A stretch of DNA of 64,000 nucleotides from Longimicrobium sp. (GCF_036388275.1 NZ_DASVSF010000108.1:13626-77625), one strand, 5' to 3'. Numbered from the stretch's first letter, positions 2,378-34,984 are shown. Translations and numbers: made by a program. The notes: generated from the sequence alone by a model not told the origin.

Positions 2378-3469
2378 CTACCGCGCCTCCACGGGATACG
2401 CCACCGGCTCGGCACGCGGATGCAGCGCCACCCGCACCGCGTCACCAGCCGACGCCTCGTGCGGACGACCGTGGATCAGCACCTCGGGGCCTCCGTCCAG
2501 CGCCACGCGGTAGAACGTGGCCGATCCCGCGTACCGGCGGTCCAGCACGCGGCCGGGGAGCGCGCCCGCGGCATCGGTCCCGGCGAGCTCCAGCCCCTCG
2601 GGCCTCACCATCACCCGCAGCGGCGCGCCGGGAGCACGGGGCGCATCCGCCGAGAGCGCCGCGGTCCACGCCGCCCCACCCGCAAGCCGGCAGACGGCGC
2701 GATCTCCATCCCCCGAATCCACCGTGGCATCCAGGAAGTTGGCGCGCCCCAGGAAGGACGCGACGAACGCATTGGCGGGCGATCCGTACAGCTCCTCGGG
2801 CGAGCCCACCTGCTGAAGCCGGCCGCGCTCCATCACCGCGATGCGGTCCGACAGCGCGAACGCCTCTTCCTGGTCGTGGGTCACGAAGATGGCCGTCATC
2901 CCCAGGCTCTTGAGCAGGGCGCGCAGCTCGTCGCGGGTGCGCTCGCGCAGGGCGGCGTCCAGGTTGCTCAGCGGCTCGTCGAGCAGCAGCAGCGGCGGCT
3001 CGGGCGCCAGCGCGCGGGCCAGCGCCACGCGCTGCTGCTGCCCGCCGGACAGCTCCTGCACCTTGCGCTTGCCGTGGCCGGCCAGCTCCACCAGCCCCAG
3101 CGCCCGCTCCACCCGCGGCCCCACGACGTCCTTGCGGTCGCCGCGCGACTTGAGGCCGAACGCCACGTTCTCCCACACGTCCAGGTGGGGGAACAGCGCG
3201 TAGTTCTGAAAGACCATCCCCACGTCGCGCTTCTGCGGCGGCAGGGCCGTCACCTCGCGCCCGCCCAGGACGATGCGGCCCGCCGTGGGATGCTCGAAGC
3301 CGGCGATCATCCGCAGCGTCGTCGTCTTTCCGCAGCCGGAGGGGCCCAGCAGCGTCAGGAACTCGCCCGCGGGCACCTGCAGCGACACCGCATCCACCGC
3401 CGTCGTCTCGCCAAACCGGCGGGTGAGGCCGTCCAGCACGAGTATTTCAGAGGAGTATATATCAGGCAT
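2378..3469 (-). CDS. ABC transporter ATP-binding protein (Fe3+/polyamine importer type, FbpC/PotA-like)
   Basis: Walker A LLGPSGCGKTT, signature LSGGQQQRVALARAL, Walker B LLLLDEP, and a C-terminal TOBE-like extension. Confidence 0.9.
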   Translation of the reverse strand: MPDIYSSEILVLDGLTRRFGETTAVDAVSLQVPAGEFLTLLGPSGCGKTTTLRMIAGFEHPTAGRIVLGGREVTALPPQKRDVGMVFQNYALFPHLDVWENVAFGLKSRGDRKDVVGPRVERALGLVELAGHGKRKVQELSGGQQQRVALARALAPEPPLLLLDEPLSNLDAALRERTRDELRALLKSLGMTAIFVTHDQEEAFALSDRIAVMERGRLQQVGSPEELYGSPANAFVASFLGRANFLDATVDSGDGDRAVCRLAGGAAWTAALSADAPRAPGAPLRVMVRPEGLELAGTDAAGALPGRVLDRRYAGSATFYRVALDGGPEVLIHGRPHEASAGDAVRVALHPRAEPVAYPVEAR

Positions 3470-3721
3470 TTAGAACCCGCGGACAGTACGAAGCGCAACC
3501 TCCGCACTGGCATGGATATCTTGGACATACACGGAGAAACGCTGGTGTCGCGTTTCGTTTATCCATGTATTAGATCCGAGAGAAGTCAAATTTCCTGTAA
3601 CAACGTCGTCGAGGTCGGCATCAGATGCGCCTAATGGTTCAAAGATGGTCCAATCATCCACATCCAGCTCAACGGCTGCGAGACCGCTGTTGTCGTTGAT
3701 TATCCGTACGATGCCGCGCAT
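3470..3721 (-). CDS. Hypothetical 83-aa protein encoded on an AT-rich insert inside the ABC operon
   Basis: ORF abuts the ATPase start (3469/3470). GGAG lies about 8 nt upstream of the ATG at 3721. No hydrophobic segment. The line 3541-3600 counts 25/60 G+C versus about 70% in the flanks. Confidence 0.55.
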   Translation of the reverse strand: MRGIVRIINDNSGLAAVELDVDDWTIFEPLGASDADLDDVVTGNLTSLGSNTWINETRHQRFSVYVQDIHASAEVALRTVRGF

Positions 3722-3740
3722 GGGCTACTCCGATTAAGGA

Positions 3741-4775
3741 TTACCGTGCACCGCGGTTGCGGACGTTCTCGTCCCAGTGGCGCATCCACTCGTTGCCGCG
3801 CTCCTGGAGGAGCTTCCAGTCCATCGGCTCGGCAACCAGCTTCTCCTGGGCGGCTCGGAGGCGCGGAGGCATGCTGTCCTGCGGAAAGTCGGTGCGCGCC
3901 GGGAGCCGGAAGAACTCGCGCACGGCCGGCACCAGCGCGGCGTTCCCGCCGATGTACTCCACGAAAACCTTGGCCGCCTCCGCGTTCGGCGCGCCGCGCA
4001 CGATGGCGACCGCATCCACGATCAGCGGGGTGCCGCTGGTGGGGATGGTATACTCGATCGGGTACTGGGCGCGCACCATCTCGATGTCCGGCAGCGCCCA
4101 GAGCGTCACGTGCCCTTCCTGGCGCGCCAGCATCTGGTACAGCATGGTGGGATTGAGGACGTACTGCTTGGTGTTGGCGTCCAGCCGGCGAAGCCACTGG
4201 AACCCCTGCGCCGTATCACCGGTGGCGCGGAGGCCGCGCTGCACCACCATGCCGAAGATGGTGCGCATGGTGCCGCTGGCCATGGGATCGCGGATGAGCA
4301 CCTTGCCCTTCCACCTGGGATCGAGCACGTCGTCCCAGTCCTTGGGTGCCTCGGCGGCGGACACCACCTGCGTGTTGTACGCGATCACCTCGGGGGTGAT
4401 GTAGGTGCCGAACCAGTATCCCTCCGGGTCCTTCGCCTCGGCGGGGACGGCCGTGGCCCACGACGGGGTGAAGGGCTGCAGCATGGAGTCGGCGGCGGCC
4501 TGCTCGAACATGTTGGCCGGGGCGCCCCACCACACGTCGGCCTGCGGGTTCGCCTTCTCCGAGCGGACGCGGTCGAACACCTCCTGCGATCCCATGTCGA
4601 CGTACTGCAGGTCGATGGTGGGGTTCGCGGCCTCGAAGCGCTTCTCGAACGCCTGCAGCATTTCGCGCCCGTGCGGCGAGTACACGGTGAGCACCTGCCG
4701 GCCGTCGCCGCCGCCGCAGGCGGTGGTGAGGGCGGCGAGTGCCAGGATGGAAAGCCCGCGGGCGGTGGTCAGCAT
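3741..4775 (-). CDS. ABC transporter periplasmic substrate-binding lipoprotein (Fe3+/thiamine/polyamine SBP fold)
   Basis: Internal ATG at 4775 of ORF 3741..5270 gives MLTTARGLSILALAALTTACGG (lipobox), then VLTVYSPHGREMLQAFEKRFEAANPTIDLQYVDMGSQEV..., typical of this SBP class. The upstream part of the ORF lies in repeat DNA. Confidence 0.85.
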   Translation of the reverse strand: MLTTARGLSILALAALTTACGGGDGRQVLTVYSPHGREMLQAFEKRFEAANPTIDLQYVDMGSQEVFDRVRSEKANPQADVWWGAPANMFEQAAADSMLQPFTPSWATAVPAEAKDPEGYWFGTYITPEVIAYNTQVVSAAEAPKDWDDVLDPRWKGKVLIRDPMASGTMRTIFGMVVQRGLRATGDTAQGFQWLRRLDANTKQYVLNPTMLYQMLARQEGHVTLWALPDIEMVRAQYPIEYTIPTSGTPLIVDAVAIVRGAPNAEAAKVFVEYIGGNAALVPAVREFFRLPARTDFPQDSMPPRLRAAQEKLVAEPMDWKLLQERGNEWMRHWDENVRNRGAR

Positions 4776-19261: not shown

Positions 19262-19292
19262 GCGGCGCGGCCCCCACCGGGAGCCGCGCCGC
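19262..19292. terminator. Fam-T palindrome GCGGCGCGGC-N11-GCCGCGCCGC with flanking A- and T-tracts (bidirectional terminator between convergent genes)
   Basis: gaaaaGCGGCGCGGCccccaccgggaGCCGCGCCGCtttcgtctt. The same palindrome occurs at 27170, 31073 and 34954. Confidence 0.7.
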
Positions 19293-27169: not shown

Positions 27170-27200
27170 GCGGCGCGGCCCCGCCCAGGAGCCGCGCCGC
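27170..27200. repeat. Fam-T palindrome (copy A) at the left edge of the accessory island
   Basis: GCGGCGCGGCcccgcccaggaGCCGCGCCGCttacgttga. Confidence 0.7.
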
Positions 27201-30270: not shown

Positions 30271-30346
30271 GGCTACGCCGCTTACGTTGAAGCTCACTTG
30301 GCTACGCCGCGAGCCCCCGCACCACCTCGACCGCGCCCCGCTTGAT
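30271..30346 (-). pseudogene. Short remnant (copy B) of the 3' end of the small gene at 31124..31294
   Basis: Encodes only ...KRGAVEVVRGLAA*. Retains the right hairpin arm and cttacgttgaagctc. About 85% identity over about 75 nt to 31090-31165. Confidence 0.65.
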
Positions 30347-31072: not shown

Positions 31073-31103
31073 GCGGCGCGGCCCCGTTCAGGAGCCGCGC
31101 CGC
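31073..31103 (-). terminator. Fam-T palindrome (copy C), terminator of the small minus-strand gene
   Basis: aataaaaGCGGCGCGGCcccgttcaggaGCCGCGCCGC, with a T-tract on the minus strand. Confidence 0.65.
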
Positions 31104-31123
31104 TTACGTTGAAGCTCATCTGC

Positions 31124-31294
31124 CTACGCGGCGAGCCGCCGCACCACCTCCACCGCGCCCCGCTTGTACACCGTCACGCACACCAGCTTCCCCTCCGGGT
31201 CGACCACCATCCAGTAGCGGCTCCCGTCGTACTTCGCGACCACGAATCCGCTCGGCTTGGGGTCCGCGGGTGGGGCTGCGGGCAATCTGGGCAT
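31124..31294 (-). CDS. Small hypothetical protein (56 aa); intact member of the ladder of truncated copies
   Basis: Internal ATG at 31294 of ORF 31124..31525: MPRLPAAPPADPKPSGFVVAKYDGSRYWMVVDPEGKLVCVTVYKRGAVEVVRRLAA. Confidence 0.55.
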   Translation of the reverse strand: MPRLPAAPPADPKPSGFVVAKYDGSRYWMVVDPEGKLVCVTVYKRGAVEVVRRLAA

Positions 31295-31430
31295 CGTGCA
31301 CCTCCAATGGGCTTGACCCTCGGCGCCCGGCAGGGCTACTCTTGGTGAGCGGGCGGCCTTCGGGTCGGTTCGCGGTAAGGCTGTCGGCCGTCTCTTGGCG
31401 GGGATACCGGCAGCCTTGCTTTTCGCCCTG

Positions 31431-31484: not shown

Positions 31485-31718
31485 ATGGACTTCAAAACGG
31501 CTACGGACCGGGTCGCCGGCTGCATCAGCCACGCCGAGATCGCAGAAGCAGCAGGGGTCTCAATTCAGACGATCAGGCAGGCCCGGATGGATCCGGGCTC
31601 AGCCAGCTATAGAAACCCGCCCGCAGGGTGGCAGGCCGTCCTTGTGGCGTTAGCACGCAAGCGATCCGAGGACTTAGCCGATTTCGCTAAACAGCTACAC
31701 GCTAGTTCTCTGCAGTGA
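31485..31718 (+). CDS. Small putative HTH DNA-binding protein (77 aa)
   Basis: Internal ATG of ORF 31461..31718: MDFKTATDRVAGCISHAEIAEAAGVSIQTIRQARMD... (helix-turn-helix-like AEIAEAAGVSIQTIRQ). Convergent with the HEPN gene (stop codons 3 nt apart). Confidence 0.5.
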   Translation: MDFKTATDRVAGCISHAEIAEAAGVSIQTIRQARMDPGSASYRNPPAGWQAVLVALARKRSEDLADFAKQLHASSLQ

Positions 31719-31720
31719 CC

Positions 31721-32413
31721 TCATGCGGCAGCCTTGAGGTATTTACGATGGGAGAGTGCGTCTGTCAGCCCTATCATTATCCTCGTTTGGACACGCAACG
31801 TGAGTGCCTCTAGGGCATCGAGCTCATCCTGATCGATCCCACCGCGTTCAGCTCCGTGCGCGATGTTGTTACGTGTCCCCAGCAGCCGGCTTATTGCTCC
31901 CTCGTCCGCCGCGAACTGATCGTGGGCAAGGCCAAGGCGAAATAAAATCTTTCTAAGAACGATGGGTTTCAGGTTGGATTCCATATCTATCACCTCGTCT
32001 ACATTCAAGGAGACGGTGGTGCTGTTGACGTCCGCGATCCCCTCAATAAACTCCACCTGTCGGGCAAAGCGGTGCAGGGGTGCGTCATCTGGCGCCGCCC
32101 GTCGGAAAATATCTGCCTTCTTATTTGGATCGGACAGTGCCTTGAAAACCCTATCGAGAGAGGCAGCGACTAGGAACGGGCTCGCATCCTCACATCGGAT
32201 CTTCTGCTCGTTGACAGCGTTAGCATACGTCCCAAATGCGGTTTTGCAGAAGCCCTCGAAGTGCGAGTACAACACGAGAATAATAGCCTTACGATAGCGG
32301 AGTCTGTCCGACTCCACTGGAATATTGCTCAGTTGATTTCGAAGGAGCCGTAGCTCATCCAAGCGCCAAGCGAGGTCTCCTTCCAACTGAGCACGAAAGT
32401 CAGCAGAATTCAT
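31721..32413 (-). CDS. HEPN-domain protein (Rx4H motif; resembles the MAE_28990/MAE_18760-type HEPN family)
   Basis: 230 aa, all-helical composition. C-terminal LLGTRNNIAHGAERG contains R-N-N-I-A-H (Rx4H). ATG is 1 nt after the DUF262 stop. Confidence 0.8.
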   Translation of the reverse strand: MNSADFRAQLEGDLAWRLDELRLLRNQLSNIPVESDRLRYRKAIILVLYSHFEGFCKTAFGTYANAVNEQKIRCEDASPFLVAASLDRVFKALSDPNKKADIFRRAAPDDAPLHRFARQVEFIEGIADVNSTTVSLNVDEVIDMESNLKPIVLRKILFRLGLAHDQFAADEGAISRLLGTRNNIAHGAERGGIDQDELDALEALTLRVQTRIMIGLTDALSHRKYLKAAA

Positions 32414-32414
32414 A

Positions 32415-33542
32415 TCATTCTACCGCCGCAGATACTTCGCGCGTCACGAACTCGATCCGTCGTTCCAGCATCCGGCGGAAATTCTTTCCTCCACCGGTGG
32501 TCATTTCTCTAAACTCTCCATCGCGCTTGACACCCTCGAACCGCTCGCGAATACGCGCAATCTGCCCCGCATCATCAGAATCGATAATTCCAAGATGCGG
32601 AATCAAGCTCAGGGCGAATGCCTCATAGTGGAGGGACAGGAACTGGGCTGGCCGACGTTCTCCGGCGACAACGCCAGTGAATGCATTCTCACCCAAGGTC
32701 ATCCGAAGGATTCGGAACGTCCGTTCAAACTGATCTTGCTCATTCTGGTACTCGAAGGGAACGCTTTTGCTGGAGACCTTCTCCATATACTCCGTAAGAA
32801 AGTCGCCTATGTTATGCACGTACGTGGGCATGTCATTCTTGAAAGCAAAAAACCGAAGCACCAGTTCCTGATCGTACTTCTCTTTCCGCTTCTCCTCCGA
32901 CAGATAGGCGATGCATGTCTTAAAATCCTCATTACGGCTCAGCGTAGCAACGAATTCGTTGAAGGCTGGATCCAGCAGCCGGATGGTACAATTCCGAATC
33001 TCCTGCTCCGACGCGAGTTCGCCCCCAGTGTTCAAGCGCTTGAACATGTAGTATCGCAGGCGCGGATCGCTCTCTTTACGGATTACCTCAACACGAACGA
33101 ATGCACGTTTGAGTTTGATAGCAAGGGCGCGGGGCAATGTCTCGTACGTGAGCCCGTTTAATTCGGGAACGATGTCGCATTCCGAGAGAGCGAGGCCCTC
33201 CAACGGCTCTCCGCCCTCGTCCCGCAGCAAACCGCGGAAATGAATGTAAGAGGACAGCCGTTGAAGCCCATCGATCAGTTCATAAGCTCCTTGGGCACGC
33301 TCGATGACGAACAGTGGCGGGAGCGGCATTTCCAGAATCAACGATTCGATCAGACGGGACTGCTTTCCTTCTGACCACCGAAATAGTCGCTGATAGTCCG
33401 GCGAGATAATCAGTTCATCATTGGCGTACATGTCCAATAATTCGTTGAATGATAGATCAAGGCTTTGGGTTCGGACTACTTCAATCCGTTGGTCCACGGC
33501 AGAGATAACATCGATTCCTGCAGCTTCTTGGTTGATGCTCAT
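32415..33542 (-). CDS. DUF262 (ParB/Srx-like, DGQQR motif) protein without a DUF1524/His-Me nuclease domain
   Basis: ATG at 33542 (13th codon of ORF 32415..33578) preceded by AAGGA. ISPDYQRLFRWSEGKQSRLIESLILEMPLPPLFV...YELIDGLQRLSS is the DUF262 signature. No H..N..H or EHI-type motif in the C-terminal half. Confidence 0.85.
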   Translation of the reverse strand: MSINQEAAGIDVISAVDQRIEVVRTQSLDLSFNELLDMYANDELIISPDYQRLFRWSEGKQSRLIESLILEMPLPPLFVIERAQGAYELIDGLQRLSSYIHFRGLLRDEGGEPLEGLALSECDIVPELNGLTYETLPRALAIKLKRAFVRVEVIRKESDPRLRYYMFKRLNTGGELASEQEIRNCTIRLLDPAFNEFVATLSRNEDFKTCIAYLSEEKRKEKYDQELVLRFFAFKNDMPTYVHNIGDFLTEYMEKVSSKSVPFEYQNEQDQFERTFRILRMTLGENAFTGVVAGERRPAQFLSLHYEAFALSLIPHLGIIDSDDAGQIARIRERFEGVKRDGEFREMTTGGGKNFRRMLERRIEFVTREVSAAVE

Positions 33543-33547
33543 ATTGC

Positions 33548-34828
33548 TTATCCTTGTTTGTTGAGCACGAGCGCACACTCTACTGCCTTCGTTACTTTAC
33601 GGTACTCGCGACCACGCGGGTGAATCGCCGCGAGATTCGCTCCAACCTTGAAGTTGGTCTGAGTCGCTACTGACCAACCCATGGACTCACCCATTTCTAC
33701 CACGATACGTGGAAGGTTGATGTGTAGTTCTTTGTAATAGGAGTCCTGGACGACGATCACCGACTTACCACCTGGCACAAGAATACGGTCCACTTCCTGT
33801 AAGGACCGGAACATCGAATCAAAATATTGCACGAAGTAGTTGAAGTAGTAAGTAGAAGACGCGCGCGAGCGATGAGTCTCGACTTCTTTCAGAACGTTGT
33901 GAGAGGTGGCTCCCCAATGCGGGGATAACTTAATCTCCCGACGAGCCATCGTGGGAGTTCCAGTCATGCGATCTCGCATCAGGTCGTCTTCAGCACGTGA
34001 GCAACCTAGGATCGCGAGTTCGGGTCGCGTAGCCACCACATAGTCAATCCTCGTAAGGTACGGAGGTGACGTTACGACTGCATCGATACCTGCGTCCGGT
34101 AGGGGCATAGAATCCGCAGAGGCGACCTCTAATCTGCAGTGTCTTCGGGTGTGTGACTCCGTTGCGCAGGTTGAGCCAGAGATAATCGAGTCCATCTCTG
34201 CCACGTTGCTAAGAAAGGCATTGTTCACCGTAGTCCGGTCAACAGACAGCTTATCTTCGGGCCCACCATCTTTGATCCAGGTCGGATTAGATGTTAGGAA
34301 CGGCCCCAGGAATCCACGCGTGGACCGAAACAGCGCAACGTAAAAGAACGCAGCTAACGAGGAAACCTCACTGAGAGGCGAGCAGTACAGACGCTGATAC
34401 TCATCGCGATCCAGCAGCAGCTCCTGAATCGCATGATCAAAGGTTCGAATAACAGACGCACTCGTCAAATCGAACCATCTGGTTAGAGGATCTGTTGCGG
34501 TGGAATCTAAGGGTAGACGACTTGCTTGATTGATGATTGCCCGGGCGAGCTTTCTTAAACTCCCATGGGCACGATAATCCAAGAGACGTGCCTTCGCCAC
34601 GACTACCATTACCGGATTCAGGTCAAAACCTGTCGCATGGTATCCAAGCTCACTGGCCAATTGTGTGCTCGTACCGCTTCCATTCCACGGATCTAATACC
34701 TGCGCCTCAGGGTGCAACCCGATGGACGAGAGCGCATCTCGAACGAAGTGGTCGGAATAACCAGCATAGTAGCTGTACCAATTCGACCGACTGCCTTTCT
34801 CGGTCGCGCGGCGCTTCGGATTCCTCAA
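33548..34828 (-). CDS. Amino (N6-adenine or N4-cytosine) DNA methyltransferase, motif order I then IV
   Basis: Motif I VLDPWNGSGTS (aa 45-55), motif IV AVVTSPPYLTRIDY (SPPY at aa 254-257). TTG start at 34828 with GGAG upstream; no in-frame ATG precedes motif I. Confidence 0.85.
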   Translation of the reverse strand: MRNPKRRATEKGSRSNWYSYYAGYSDHFVRDALSSIGLHPEAQVLDPWNGSGTSTQLASELGYHATGFDLNPVMVVVAKARLLDYRAHGSLRKLARAIINQASRLPLDSTATDPLTRWFDLTSASVIRTFDHAIQELLLDRDEYQRLYCSPLSEVSSLAAFFYVALFRSTRGFLGPFLTSNPTWIKDGGPEDKLSVDRTTVNNAFLSNVAEMDSIISGSTCATESHTRRHCRLEVASADSMPLPDAGIDAVVTSPPYLTRIDYVVATRPELAILGCSRAEDDLMRDRMTGTPTMARREIKLSPHWGATSHNVLKEVETHRSRASSTYYFNYFVQYFDSMFRSLQEVDRILVPGGKSVIVVQDSYYKELHINLPRIVVEMGESMGWSVATQTNFKVGANLAAIHPRGREYRKVTKAVECALVLNKQG

Positions 34829-34848
34829 TGGCTCCGGCTCAGGACAAA

Positions 34849-34864
34849 GTCAATGTGTTGACTC
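34849..34864. promoter_or_regulatory. Perfect palindrome AGTCAA-tgtg-TTGACT between the predicted promoter and the methyltransferase start (operator candidate)
   Basis: Seen directly. The octamer GTGTTGAC occurs again on the opposite strand at about 34897-34904, overlapping the -35 box. Confidence 0.4.
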
Positions 34865-34873
34865 AGACGCAGC

Positions 34874-34902
34874 ATTCTCATCGTTCTCAGCGCCGATGTC
34901 AA
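34874..34902 (-). promoter_or_regulatory. Sigma70-like promoter for the MTase-DUF262-HEPN operon
   Basis: Minus strand reads TTGACA-17 nt-GAGAAT, about 45 nt upstream of the TTG start. Confidence 0.4.
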
Positions 34903-34953
34903 CACTGCCTCTGGAATGAGCATGGTGCCAAAGCACAGAGGCACAACATGCAG

Positions 34954-34984
34954 GCGGCGCGGCCCCCGCCGGGAGCCGCGCCGC
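34954..34984. repeat. Fam-T palindrome (copy D) at the right edge of the island, immediately downstream of the RND operon
   Basis: GCGGCGCGGCccccgccgggaGCCGCGCCGCttcgtttt, in the same orientation as copies A and C. Confidence 0.7.

Follow-up and report, generated by a model that had tools for sequence, protein, structure and literature searches.

What does a DNA methylase guard when its operon partners are a DUF262 protein without a nuclease half and a HEPN protein? We met this question in a stretch of 64,000 nucleotides from a Longimicrobium genome (the window), where three minus-strand genes, coding for a methylase, a DUF262 protein and a HEPN protein, are packed within positions 31721-34828 and form a cassette of 3.1 kb. 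The gene content, motifs and coordinates that a first-pass annotation had given for this cassette were all recovered. The features are as follows.

33548-34828, minus strand: predicted DNA amino-methyltransferase of the N6A/N4C type (PF01555), permuted; assigned by Pfam, PADLOC and invariant motifs
32415-33542, minus strand: NsnA-like DUF262 protein with a predicted ParB/Srx-fold NTPase domain and an all-helical, ParBDB-like C-terminal half
31721-32413, minus strand: HEPN protein of the MAE_28990/RiboL-PSP family, predicted metal-independent RNase, Rx4H at R181-N182...H186
34874-34902, minus strand: candidate sigma-70-like promoter, TTGACA-17-GAGAAT, about 45 nt upstream of the methylase start; a consensus match only
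31619-31636, minus strand: terminator-like hairpin with T-tract, about 85 nt past the HEPN stop; tentative
31720-34953, no strand: low-GC island holding the cassette (GC 0.52-0.54), flanked by an AcrB-family efflux gene on one side and GC-rich, host-like DNA on the other

The first gene (34828 to 33548; 426 aa, TTG start) encodes a predicted DNA methylase of N6A or N4C specificity. Motif I, DPWNGSGT, lies at aa 46-53 and motif IV, SPPY, at aa 254-257. The Pfam profile PF01555 (N6_N4_Mtase) scores 40.6 bits (cut-off 26.7), and its N-terminal half, which holds motif IV, aligns to residues 248-424, as the permuted I...IV order would have it. The PADLOC MTase_II profile matched at 2.3e-23. Among 25 sequences, D46, P47, W48, G50, G52 and T53 as well as S254-Y257 are invariant, and a variable TRD-like segment is found at about aa 81-240.

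The second protein (33542 to 32415) measures 375 aa counted from its ATG; a longer ORF that starts with GTG and reaches 33578 is not supported by the N-termini of homologues. It scores 75.2 bits with PF03235 (GmrSD_N) and carries ELIDGLQRLSS at aa 88-98. All three of its DUF262 motifs (QRxxxW, 51-56; DGLQR, 91-95; FKRLN, 167-171) are invariant among homologues. No Pfam match to the DUF1524 His-Me nuclease (PF07510) was found in the protein, and Foldseek matched its predicted structure, helical at the C-terminus, to no nuclease fold. Pfam, predicted structure and Foldseek thus agree with the first-pass annotation that the nuclease half is missing. The Foldseek matches obtained were Noc (1.9e-4), BrxU (7p9k, 4.4e-4) and SspE (6jiv, 2.2e-3). 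Like the window protein, GmrSD, BrxU and SspE have an N-terminal DUF262 NTPase domain with DGxQR. However, they are single polypeptides whose DUF1524 His-Me nuclease cleaves or nicks DNA, whereas the effector in the window is a separate HEPN protein.

This HEPN protein (32413 to 31721; 230 aa, stand-alone) carries RNNIAH at aa 181-186. Both PF18737 (HEPN_MAE_28990; 97.5 bits, cut-off 26.8) and PF18735 (92.9 bits, cut-off 28.4) match it over residues 6-225, and the NCBI naming of the protein agrees with PF18737 membership. R181, N182, H186 and G187 are invariant among 28 homologues of 43-77% identity. An AlphaFold2 model (pLDDT 92.4) is all-helical and yielded no significant PDB neighbour; what supports the RNase prediction is therefore the Pfam profile together with the motif. 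No PADLOC model matched the HEPN protein even at E <= 10, PD-T4-2_B included.

Reading the junctions directly, we found a 5-nt gap with AAGGA ahead of the DUF262 ATG and a 1-nt gap (TGA-t-ATG) ahead of the HEPN gene, both as annotated. The proposed promoter, TTGACA-17-GAGAAT at 34902-34874 on the minus strand, is present and agrees with 10 of 12 consensus positions; as a pattern match, it is a candidate promoter of the operon. Downstream, the hairpin is a possible, tentative operon terminator: it falls inside a small convergent HTH ORF, and the case for it is weak because the number of such sites does not exceed shuffle expectation. The annotation had also stated that no restriction endonuclease, helicase or ATPase gene accompanies the trio. 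An ORF and Pfam survey found none adjacent to the cassette in the window, and none recurs across 80 related loci.

The base composition sets the cassette apart. GC is 0.50-0.55 over positions 31500-34900 and 0.62-0.78 in the flanks, and GC3 of the cassette genes is 0.56-0.60 versus 0.96 in the adjacent AcrB-family gene. GC of the cassette is also below that of its flanks in 44 of 45 other loci, which supports the horizontal acquisition that had been proposed. Searches at the Longimicrobium island for an integrase, a tRNA or a direct-repeat scar came up empty. On Roseomonas plasmids the cassette lies beside a toxin-antitoxin pair (RelE/ParE), an integrase fragment and IS elements. Carriers include cultured bacteria, among them Desulfitobacterium hafniense, Paenibacillus, Alicyclobacillus and, on plasmids, Roseomonas mucosa.

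Such mobility raises the idea of a selfish addiction module, in which the HEPN toxin would be neutralised by DUF262 and/or by methylation, the cassette would persist on mobile DNA through post-segregational killing, and phage defence would be incidental. Toxin-antitoxin systems commonly use HEPN toxins, and addiction-module behaviour is known from R-M systems. Together with the strong signature of horizontal transfer and the plasmid copies beside RelE/ParE and IS elements, these points speak for it. We nevertheless hold it to be improbable, for reasons that emerge from the comparisons below, although a cassette could serve addiction and defence at once.

Two classical arrangements invite comparison. 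The compact methylase-first operon, the mobile low-GC cassette and the match to the REBASE-derived MTase_II profile recall type II R-M systems, and the window methylase has the SAM-binding DPWNGSGT and the catalytic SPPY. But there is no restriction endonuclease, and the 'R' position is taken by a putative sensor and a non-DNase effector. PrrC-EcoprrI, an anticodon nuclease within a type Ic R-M system, likewise couples a HEPN RNase genetically to DNA modification and is a plausible case of RNA-level killing tied to DNA-level discrimination of self from non-self. It differs in its ABC ATPase, HsdR/HsdS and restriction endonuclease, all of which the window cassette lacks; no hsd genes are present.

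Could DUF262 itself act as the nuclease? Within the ParB superfamily, DNase activity has been reported for some NTPases, and Osa is cited on this point in the Menshen paper. The trio has been noted before: Anantharaman, Makarova, Burroughs, Koonin and Aravind (2013) already list the MAE_28990 HEPN domain together with ParB/DUF262 and DNA methylase genes (Table 1), the same operon context as in the window, whose HEPN protein is a bona fide PF18737 member. Their entry is accompanied by a general analogy to PrrC only, with no quantification, experiments or alternative effectors. In the two-line defence that they proposed on this PrrC/EcoprrI model, the methylase and DUF262 would form an R-M-like first line: DUF262 would cut or nick unmethylated DNA, the complex would hold HEPN inactive, and HEPN would fire only when that first line has been knocked out by a phage anti-restriction factor. 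The gene context has been interpreted in this way in print, and the reported DNase activity in the superfamily also speaks for it. Against it, the window DUF262 protein has no recognisable nuclease domain or fold, and in the characterised GmrSD, BrxU and SspE it is DUF1524 that cleaves, not DUF262. Where Anantharaman et al. took ParB as a DNase, current DUF262 data point to an NTPase sensor. We regard this two-line defence as unlikely, if the least unlikely of the rival explanations.

Among experimentally studied systems, the closest relatives are PD-T4-2 and Menshen. No experimental characterisation of the methylase-DUF262-HEPN trio was found in the literature searched, in line with the first-pass annotation. 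The DUF262-HEPN core, however, does have a validated relative: PD-T4-2 from E. coli ECOR65 is an anti-phage DUF262-HEPN pair that protects against T4, natively and cloned, without a methylase (Vassallo et al. 2022; PMC9519451). A 1.8-kb clone of it was active in E. coli K-12, which evidently tolerates it (PMC9519451). As in the window, a DUF262 gene without a DUF1524 nuclease precedes a small HEPN gene, and PF03235 and PF18735/PF18737 are common to both systems; PF18735 and PF18737 are the top HHpred matches of PD-T4-2B. The two PD-T4-2 genes are smaller (1.54 kb together) and lack the conserved methylase of the window cassette. At the profile level, PD-T4-2_A gave a moderate match to the window DUF262 protein (1.1e-38), weaker than that of NsnA (4.8e-59), and the PD-T4-2_B profile left the window HEPN protein unmatched, so that the likeness of the effectors is at Pfam-family level only. 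Judged by these profiles, the window cassette is a subfamily distinct from PD-T4-2, with an added conserved methylase. That the nearest tested relative gives phage defence in its native host argues against a pure addiction function. With Menshen (NsnABC) the cassette shares an NsnA-like DUF262 protein, which has all three ParB-DUF262 motifs and ends in a helical domain resembling ParBDB. It has neither the NsnB ATPase nor the inPIN-nuclease effector NsnC; instead, HEPN directly follows the putative sensor. The Menshen authors, too, raise the speculation that ParB-DUF262 might be directed at non-modified genomes by methylases associated with it.

To ask how general the arrangement is, we anchored locus counts on HEPN homologues in species-representative genomes (n=66). 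DUF262 lies directly upstream of HEPN in 65 of these loci, and in 57 all three genes stand in the order seen in the window, which confirms that the trio is kept as neighbours in other genomes. The loci span more than 10 phyla, with representatives in Chloroflexota, Bacillota, Bacteroidota, Planctomycetota, Acidobacteriota, Pseudomonadota, Cyanobacteria, Verrucomicrobiota and Bdellovibrionota as well as Methanothrix. The methylase is always the first gene of the trio, mostly 20 nt or less from the next, while the DUF262 and HEPN genes overlap in 42 of 48 clean trios (in 32 the overlap is exactly 4 nt). Each cassette protein has hundreds to thousands of homologues. The trio genes co-diverge (r = 0.65-0.74, Mantel p <= 0.001), and alignments showed both Rx4H and DGxQR to be conserved. 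No fourth gene recurs; the most frequent flanking family was seen at 4 of the 80 loci. These genes are not neighbours by chance. DUF262 and HEPN are a translationally coupled, co-evolving pair, and this coupling suggests a complex, a point in favour of the two-line defence.

Five pairs without a methylase (L001, L003, L027, L038 and L066) retain DGLQR, QRxxxW and Rx4H intact, and among the loci analysed their closest DUF262 relatives are trio members. Methylase-less DUF262-HEPN pairs also occur on E. coli IncF plasmids. The pair can thus exist without its methylase and does not necessarily kill its host, contrary to a simple model in which unmethylated DNA activates HEPN. The persistence of such pairs also counts against a two-line defence, and the repeated loss of the methylase without decay of the catalytic motifs against addiction. 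Methylase-less pairs with intact motifs would suit sensing akin to that of the type IV enzymes GmrSD and BrxU, where DUF262 would read modified phage DNA or another phage cue and activate HEPN. The methylase would then not determine self and non-self; it could be an accessory, serve an epigenetic role, protect against another system in the same cell, or be an orphan that hitch-hikes. PD-T4-2, which acts on T4 with its glucosyl-hmC DNA in the absence of a methylase, fits this explanation, as do the Foldseek likeness to BrxU and SspE and the suggestion that the Dazbog DUF262 protein recognises methylated DNA. Yet the methylase is kept in 57 of 66 loci, always first and usually within 20 nt, and such fidelity over phyla and effector types is hard to square with a passenger gene. 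We rate type IV-like sensing as decidedly unlikely, if not quite as improbable as addiction.

A second census was anchored on the methylase clade (n=54 loci). DUF262 followed by HEPN was found in 32 of these, a SIR2-like gene followed by DUF262 in 11, and DUF262 followed by a partner bearing RNFFAH in 5. At 50 or more of the 54 loci the clade adjoins one DUF262 pair or another, a further point against a passenger methylase. In one locus (L165), a single methylase precedes two pairs, one with HEPN and one with SIR2. Methylase similarity is 0.39-0.40 between architecture types versus 0.40-0.46 within them, with nearest neighbours intermixed, whereas DUF262 similarity drops from 0.43-0.58 within a type to 0.17-0.18 between types (about 17% identity). 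With ancestry controlled, the variable region of the methylase co-varies weakly with the C-terminal half of DUF262 (partial r = 0.23). The cassette thus consists of an exchangeable methylase and a co-evolving sensor-effector pair. Methylase exchange beside type-specific DUF262 proteins fits a generic DNA mark with swappable Abi-type effectors rather than specific protein contacts, and argues against the methylase-DUF262 complex of a two-line defence, though the interchange of HEPN and SIR2 effectors behind one methylase clade speaks for that model. Exchange of effectors behind a sensor is typical for defence systems, which counts against addiction. What is new here is that one methylase clade pairs with other DUF262 subfamilies and effectors, SIR2-like proteins included.

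We consider the chances even that the locus is a mobile, self-contained anti-phage cassette, a methylase-carrying relative of PD-T4-2 with a methylation-gated DUF262 sensor and a HEPN RNase. The methylase would mark host DNA. DUF262 would bind DNA and, as an NTP-dependent switch, separate invading DNA from marked self, then release or activate HEPN, which may cut cellular or phage RNA (tRNA or mRNA) and so abort the infection. The scheme would amount to R-M logic with an RNA-targeting effector, not a DNase, in the 'R' slot. The sequences themselves establish the genes present, their intact motifs, and the conservation, modularity and mobility of the cassette, while the DNA mark, the cue that DUF262 reads, the RNase activity with its target and the abortive outcome are inferred. 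The exchangeable methylase and the type-specific DUF262-effector pairs favour such a mechanism of self mark, sensor and executioner; the intact motifs of methylase-less pairs, the methylase-free PD-T4-2 and the weak co-variation of methylase and DUF262 cut against it. More tentatively, and with somewhat less confidence than for the cassette itself, the locus may belong to a broad class of 'modification-dependent abortive infection', with an exchangeable methylase as self mark, type-specific DUF262 sensors and swappable non-DNase effectors. In the window the effector would be a HEPN RNase, in other loci a SIR2-like NADase or another partner, so that 'restriction' would fall on RNA or NAD+ and not on DNA. 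A single methylase could then license several sensor-effector pairs, as the locus with both a HEPN and a SIR2 pair suggests.

Menshen, Dazbog and PD-T4-2 all raise the question of how DUF262/ParB-like sensors discriminate self from non-self. In the clade described here, the sensor-effector pair is wired to a methylase, which opens this discrimination directly to experiment, and a compact cassette with its own candidate promoter, found in cultured bacteria and on plasmids, is practical to test. If the proposed mechanism is true, it would link R-M-style epigenetic self-marking to abortive-infection effectors and would account for one methylase clade travelling with several unrelated effector types.

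On the minus strand of the window, behind a putative promoter, all three open reading frames of the trio claimed by the first-pass annotation were found in place:

34902-34874, minus: sigma-70-like promoter TTGACA-17-GAGAAT, a putative pattern match to 10/12 consensus positions
34828-33548, minus: methyltransferase, 426 aa, TTG start
33542-32415, minus: DUF262 protein, 375 aa
32413-31721, minus: HEPN protein, 230 aa

Both claimed junctions could be read in the sequence, with an AAGGA Shine-Dalgarno motif and a 5-nt gap before the DUF262 gene and a 1-nt gap (TGA-t-ATG) before the HEPN gene. The suggested foreign composition was likewise borne out by a GC content of 0.50-0.55 in the cassette versus 0.62-0.78 in its flanks; GC3 was 0.56-0.60 versus 0.96 in the adjoining AcrB-family gene. 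The cassette segment is compositionally foreign, and a search of the island borders for a tRNA or an integrase found neither. The observation is real and the initial description of the cassette accurate.

Pfam assigned all three proteins to the proposed families. The methyltransferase carries PF01555 (N6_N4_Mtase) in a permuted, alpha-like motif order: the N-terminal (motif-IV) half of the profile aligns to residues 248-424, and motif I, DPWNGSGT, lies at residues 46-53. It matched the REBASE-derived MTase_II profiles of PADLOC, while the solved structures related to it, beta-class and N4C methyltransferases, matched weakly. The DUF262 protein contains PF03235 (GmrSD_N) and no DUF1524. Its AlphaFold2 model (pLDDT 81) combines an N-terminal alpha/beta domain with an all-helical C-terminal half, and Foldseek matched it to the ParB-family CTPases Noc and ParB, BrxU (7p9k), SspE (6jiv) and sulfiredoxin. 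Since no nuclease fold was among these matches, the description as nuclease-less holds for both domain content and fold. Near the C-terminus, outside the Pfam DUF262 domain, we observed a glycine-rich motif, T-x-G-G-G-K/x-N (window 32482-32502, aa 348-354), of which T348, G350, G351, G352 and N354 are invariant in the window's DUF262 subfamily. The HEPN protein was assigned both PF18737 (HEPN_MAE_28990) and PF18735 (RiboL-PSP-HEPN), and NCBI lists an identical protein (100%) from Longimicrobium sp. as 'MAE_28990/MAE_18760 family HEPN-like nuclease'. Its AlphaFold2 model (pLDDT 92.4) is all-helical and had no significant PDB neighbour in Foldseek (best E = 0.55). Sequence searches of solved structures with the three proteins gave no or weak matches, and none for HEPN.

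The trio does not stand as a new observation, because Anantharaman et al. (2013) already recorded its gene neighbourhood. By analogy with PrrC-EcoprrI, they proposed a role as second-line RNases for HEPN genes that lie in R-M-like operons. For the trio, this would make methylase and DUF262 a first line of defence, with HEPN firing once a phage disables that line; we regard such a two-line arrangement as a minority reading. A validated relative of the DUF262-HEPN core is PD-T4-2 of E. coli ECOR65 (Vassallo et al. 2022), recorded as 'DUF262, HEPN', both genes 1.54 kb and cloned without a methylase. It protects K-12 from T4, and native protection was shown by deletion. In its HHpred table, component A is listed as DUF262/DndB/ParB and component B as HEPN_RiboL-PSP (97.8%) and HEPN_MAE_28990 (96.9%). 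However, the window's DUF262 protein fits NsnA, the DUF262 sensor of Menshen (NsnABC), better than PD-T4-2_A (4.8e-59 and 1.1e-38 against the PADLOC profiles), and its model agrees with the sensor layout reported for NsnA, 'ParB-DUF262 + ParBDB' (PMC12065111). Since, in addition, no PADLOC model matched the window's HEPN at E <= 10, the cassette would probably be called neither PD-T4-2 nor Menshen at the profile level. A literature search covering few subscription journals found neither a study of the PD-T4-2 mechanism nor a paper describing the trio as a system. We would place the cassette, as a variant linked to a methylase, among the PD-T4-2 / NsnA-like defence systems that combine a DUF262 sensor with a HEPN effector.

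To follow the trio through other genomes, an alignment of 28 HEPN homologs (43-77% identity) was used as query. Of 156 confirmed matches, we retrieved 80 loci in species-representative genomes, on which the window's three proteins were then mapped; neighbourhood counts were limited to the 66 in which at least 2.6 kb of sequence precedes HEPN. DUF262 lay immediately upstream of HEPN on the same strand in 65 of these 66, and the complete methylase > DUF262 > HEPN order was kept in 57, so that the proposed conservation of the trio was upheld. Its hosts belong to Chloroflexota, Bacillota, Bacteroidota, Planctomycetota, Acidobacteriota, Pseudomonadota, Cyanobacteria, Verrucomicrobiota and Bdellovibrionota, and include two Methanothrix-type archaeal MAGs. 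Of 48 clean trios, 42 have overlapping DUF262 and HEPN genes, and in 32 the overlap is exactly 4 nt (ATGA); the methylase-DUF262 spacing is mostly -29 to +21 nt. Cassette GC was below that of the flanks in 44/45 loci (mean difference -0.10). The catalytic residues pointed out in the window are also conserved: R181, N182, H186 and G187 of the HEPN Rx4H site are invariant among the 28 homologs, and QRxxxW, DGLQR and FKRLN of DUF262, like motif I and SPPY of the methylase, are invariant or nearly so in the trios and in wider alignments. Pairwise identities of the three genes were correlated (r = 0.65-0.74, Mantel p <= 0.001).

Neither a restriction endonuclease nor an ATPase emerged as a hidden fourth gene: no recurrent family was found in the 80 loci, the largest flanking one occurring in 4/80, and we therefore take the cassette to be complete with three genes. 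On plasmids of Roseomonas mucosa it has as neighbours a toxin-antitoxin pair (RelE/ParE), IS elements and a fragment of an integrase. Its carrier strains include Roseomonas mucosa AD1, Desulfitobacterium hafniense DCB-2 and Alicyclobacillus macrosporangiidus DSM 17980. GenBank phage records yielded no HEPN homologs, and in IMG/VR the cassette is rare (13 loci, mostly at contig ends). Two MAGs of methanogenic archaea (L017 and L064, Methanotrichaceae / Methanothrix) encode HEPN homologs of 41-45% identity; the gene order of L017 looks rearranged, with a methylase fragment downstream. These homologs indicate a putative transfer of the cassette between domains.

Several small elements surround the cassette in the window:

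19262-19292, 27170-27200, 31073-31103 and 34954-34984: copies of a GC-rich palindrome
31461/31485-31718, plus: small HTH-like ORF, 85 aa, convergent, ending 2 nt from the HEPN stop codon
31439-31467, minus: putative, near-perfect sigma-70 promoter match TTGACA-17-TATGAT (11/12)

The palindrome, GCGGCGCGGCCCC-N5-GGAGCCGCGCCGC, measures 31-33 nt, is intergenic, follows genes, and resembles a REP-like dispersed repeat or a shared terminator hairpin. The hairpins at 31073 and 34954 bracket the cassette; we rejected them as insertion scars because the element is dispersed, with four copies in the window. A 69-nt direct repeat of 91% identity (30276-30344 and 31098-31166) reads on the minus strand, in both copies, as a small-ORF C-terminus, '...KRGAVEVVR(R/G)LAA*', followed by the hairpin element, which suggests two paralogous small genes. 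The TTGACA-17-TATGAT site lies in the divergent region between the HTH-like ORF and a small minus-strand ORF (31124-31360) that had no Pfam match. Neither ORF was retained as a controller (C) protein, since no homolog adjoins any related locus.

A second survey was anchored on the methylase instead of HEPN and covered 54 metagenomic loci in which enough sequence follows the methylase.

Arrangements behind the methylase (number of 54 loci)
DUF262 > HEPN, the window's type: 32
SIR2-like > DUF262 (PF13289 and PADLOC SIR2 matches): 11
DUF262 > ~220-aa partner (RNFFAH motif, no significant profile match): 5
DUF262 alone: 1
DUF262 > HEPN then SIR2 > DUF262, in tandem behind one methylase (L165): 1
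Other arrangements, at least 2 with an inverted DUF262 pair: 4

The two clear effector types, HEPN RNase and SIR2-like NADase, are classical abortive-infection effectors. The SIR2-type loci (L124, L134, L141, L148, L153, L158, L167, L168, L171, L175 and L178; for example L167, 525-4022) encode a divergent DUF262 protein, and matched no PADLOC system component beyond NsnA-like and SIR2. In L165 (1080-6357), the methylase is followed by DUF262 > HEPN (2390-4227) and SIR2-like > DUF262 (4290 to the contig end), which suggests that one methylase can serve two sensor-effector pairs. DUF262 is also divergent in the loci with the ~220-aa partner (L122, L127, L130, L154 and L162; for example L162, 5266-7022). 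This partner (Type B) had no Pfam or PADLOC match, and its RNFFAH aligns with the HEPN Rx4H site. Its assignment to HEPN was rejected, as hhalign was not significant and the motif is the sole pointer; it may represent an unrecognised HEPN family.

Mean methylase identity was 0.39-0.40 between architecture types (maximum 0.62) and 0.40-0.46 within them, with nearest neighbours intermixed, and DUF262 identity was strictly type-specific (0.43-0.58 within types, 0.17-0.18 between). Since methylases mix across types and DUF262 proteins do not, the cassette consists of two modules: a methylase that can be exchanged, and a sensor and effector that co-evolve. Such a pattern would be expected if DUF262 regulates its partner effector and the methylase acts via a generic DNA mark, not a specific protein complex. 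Within the methylase, a variable segment (aa 81-240) had a mean identity of 0.28 versus 0.47 for the core, and co-varied weakly with the C-terminal half of DUF262 (partial r = 0.23).

Five pairs of this clade lack the methylase (L001, L003, L027, L038 and L066) and keep intact catalytic motifs; among the loci analysed, their closest DUF262 relatives are trio members (48-66% identity). In L009 a different, beta-class methylase fills the upstream slot, and in L051 an IS element separates methylase and DUF262. DUF262-HEPN-type pairs without methylase also occur on conjugative plasmids of E. coli and Salmonella, one adjoining pemIK. Two of them, on E. coli IncFIA/IncFIC (IncF) plasmids (L082, 3986-5686; L083, 3929-5524), are not PD-T4-2 proper, since NsnA was their better-scoring profile and PADLOC gave no match for their HEPN partners. 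They probably represent modules of a PD-T4-2-like kind, still unannotated, for defence or stability.

Given the intact methylase-less pairs and the activity of PD-T4-2 without a methylase, the DUF262-HEPN pair need not poison its host when its own methylase is missing. Both findings count against a simple methylation-dependent trigger. Either the methylase-less pairs sense another cue, or another methylase of the genome covers for the missing one, or the notion that unmethylated DNA triggers HEPN is wrong. That the cassette is mainly a selfish addiction module seems improbable to us. Type IV-like sensing, with the methylase as an accessory, is an unlikely reading, if a little less so than addiction. 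The best-supported model, to which we give about an even chance, remains the one initially proposed, in which the methylase marks self, DUF262 reads the modification and HEPN executes. The existence of the cassette is unlikely to surprise a specialist much; its exchangeable methylase and swappable effectors offer a testable handle on self/non-self discrimination by DUF262 proteins.
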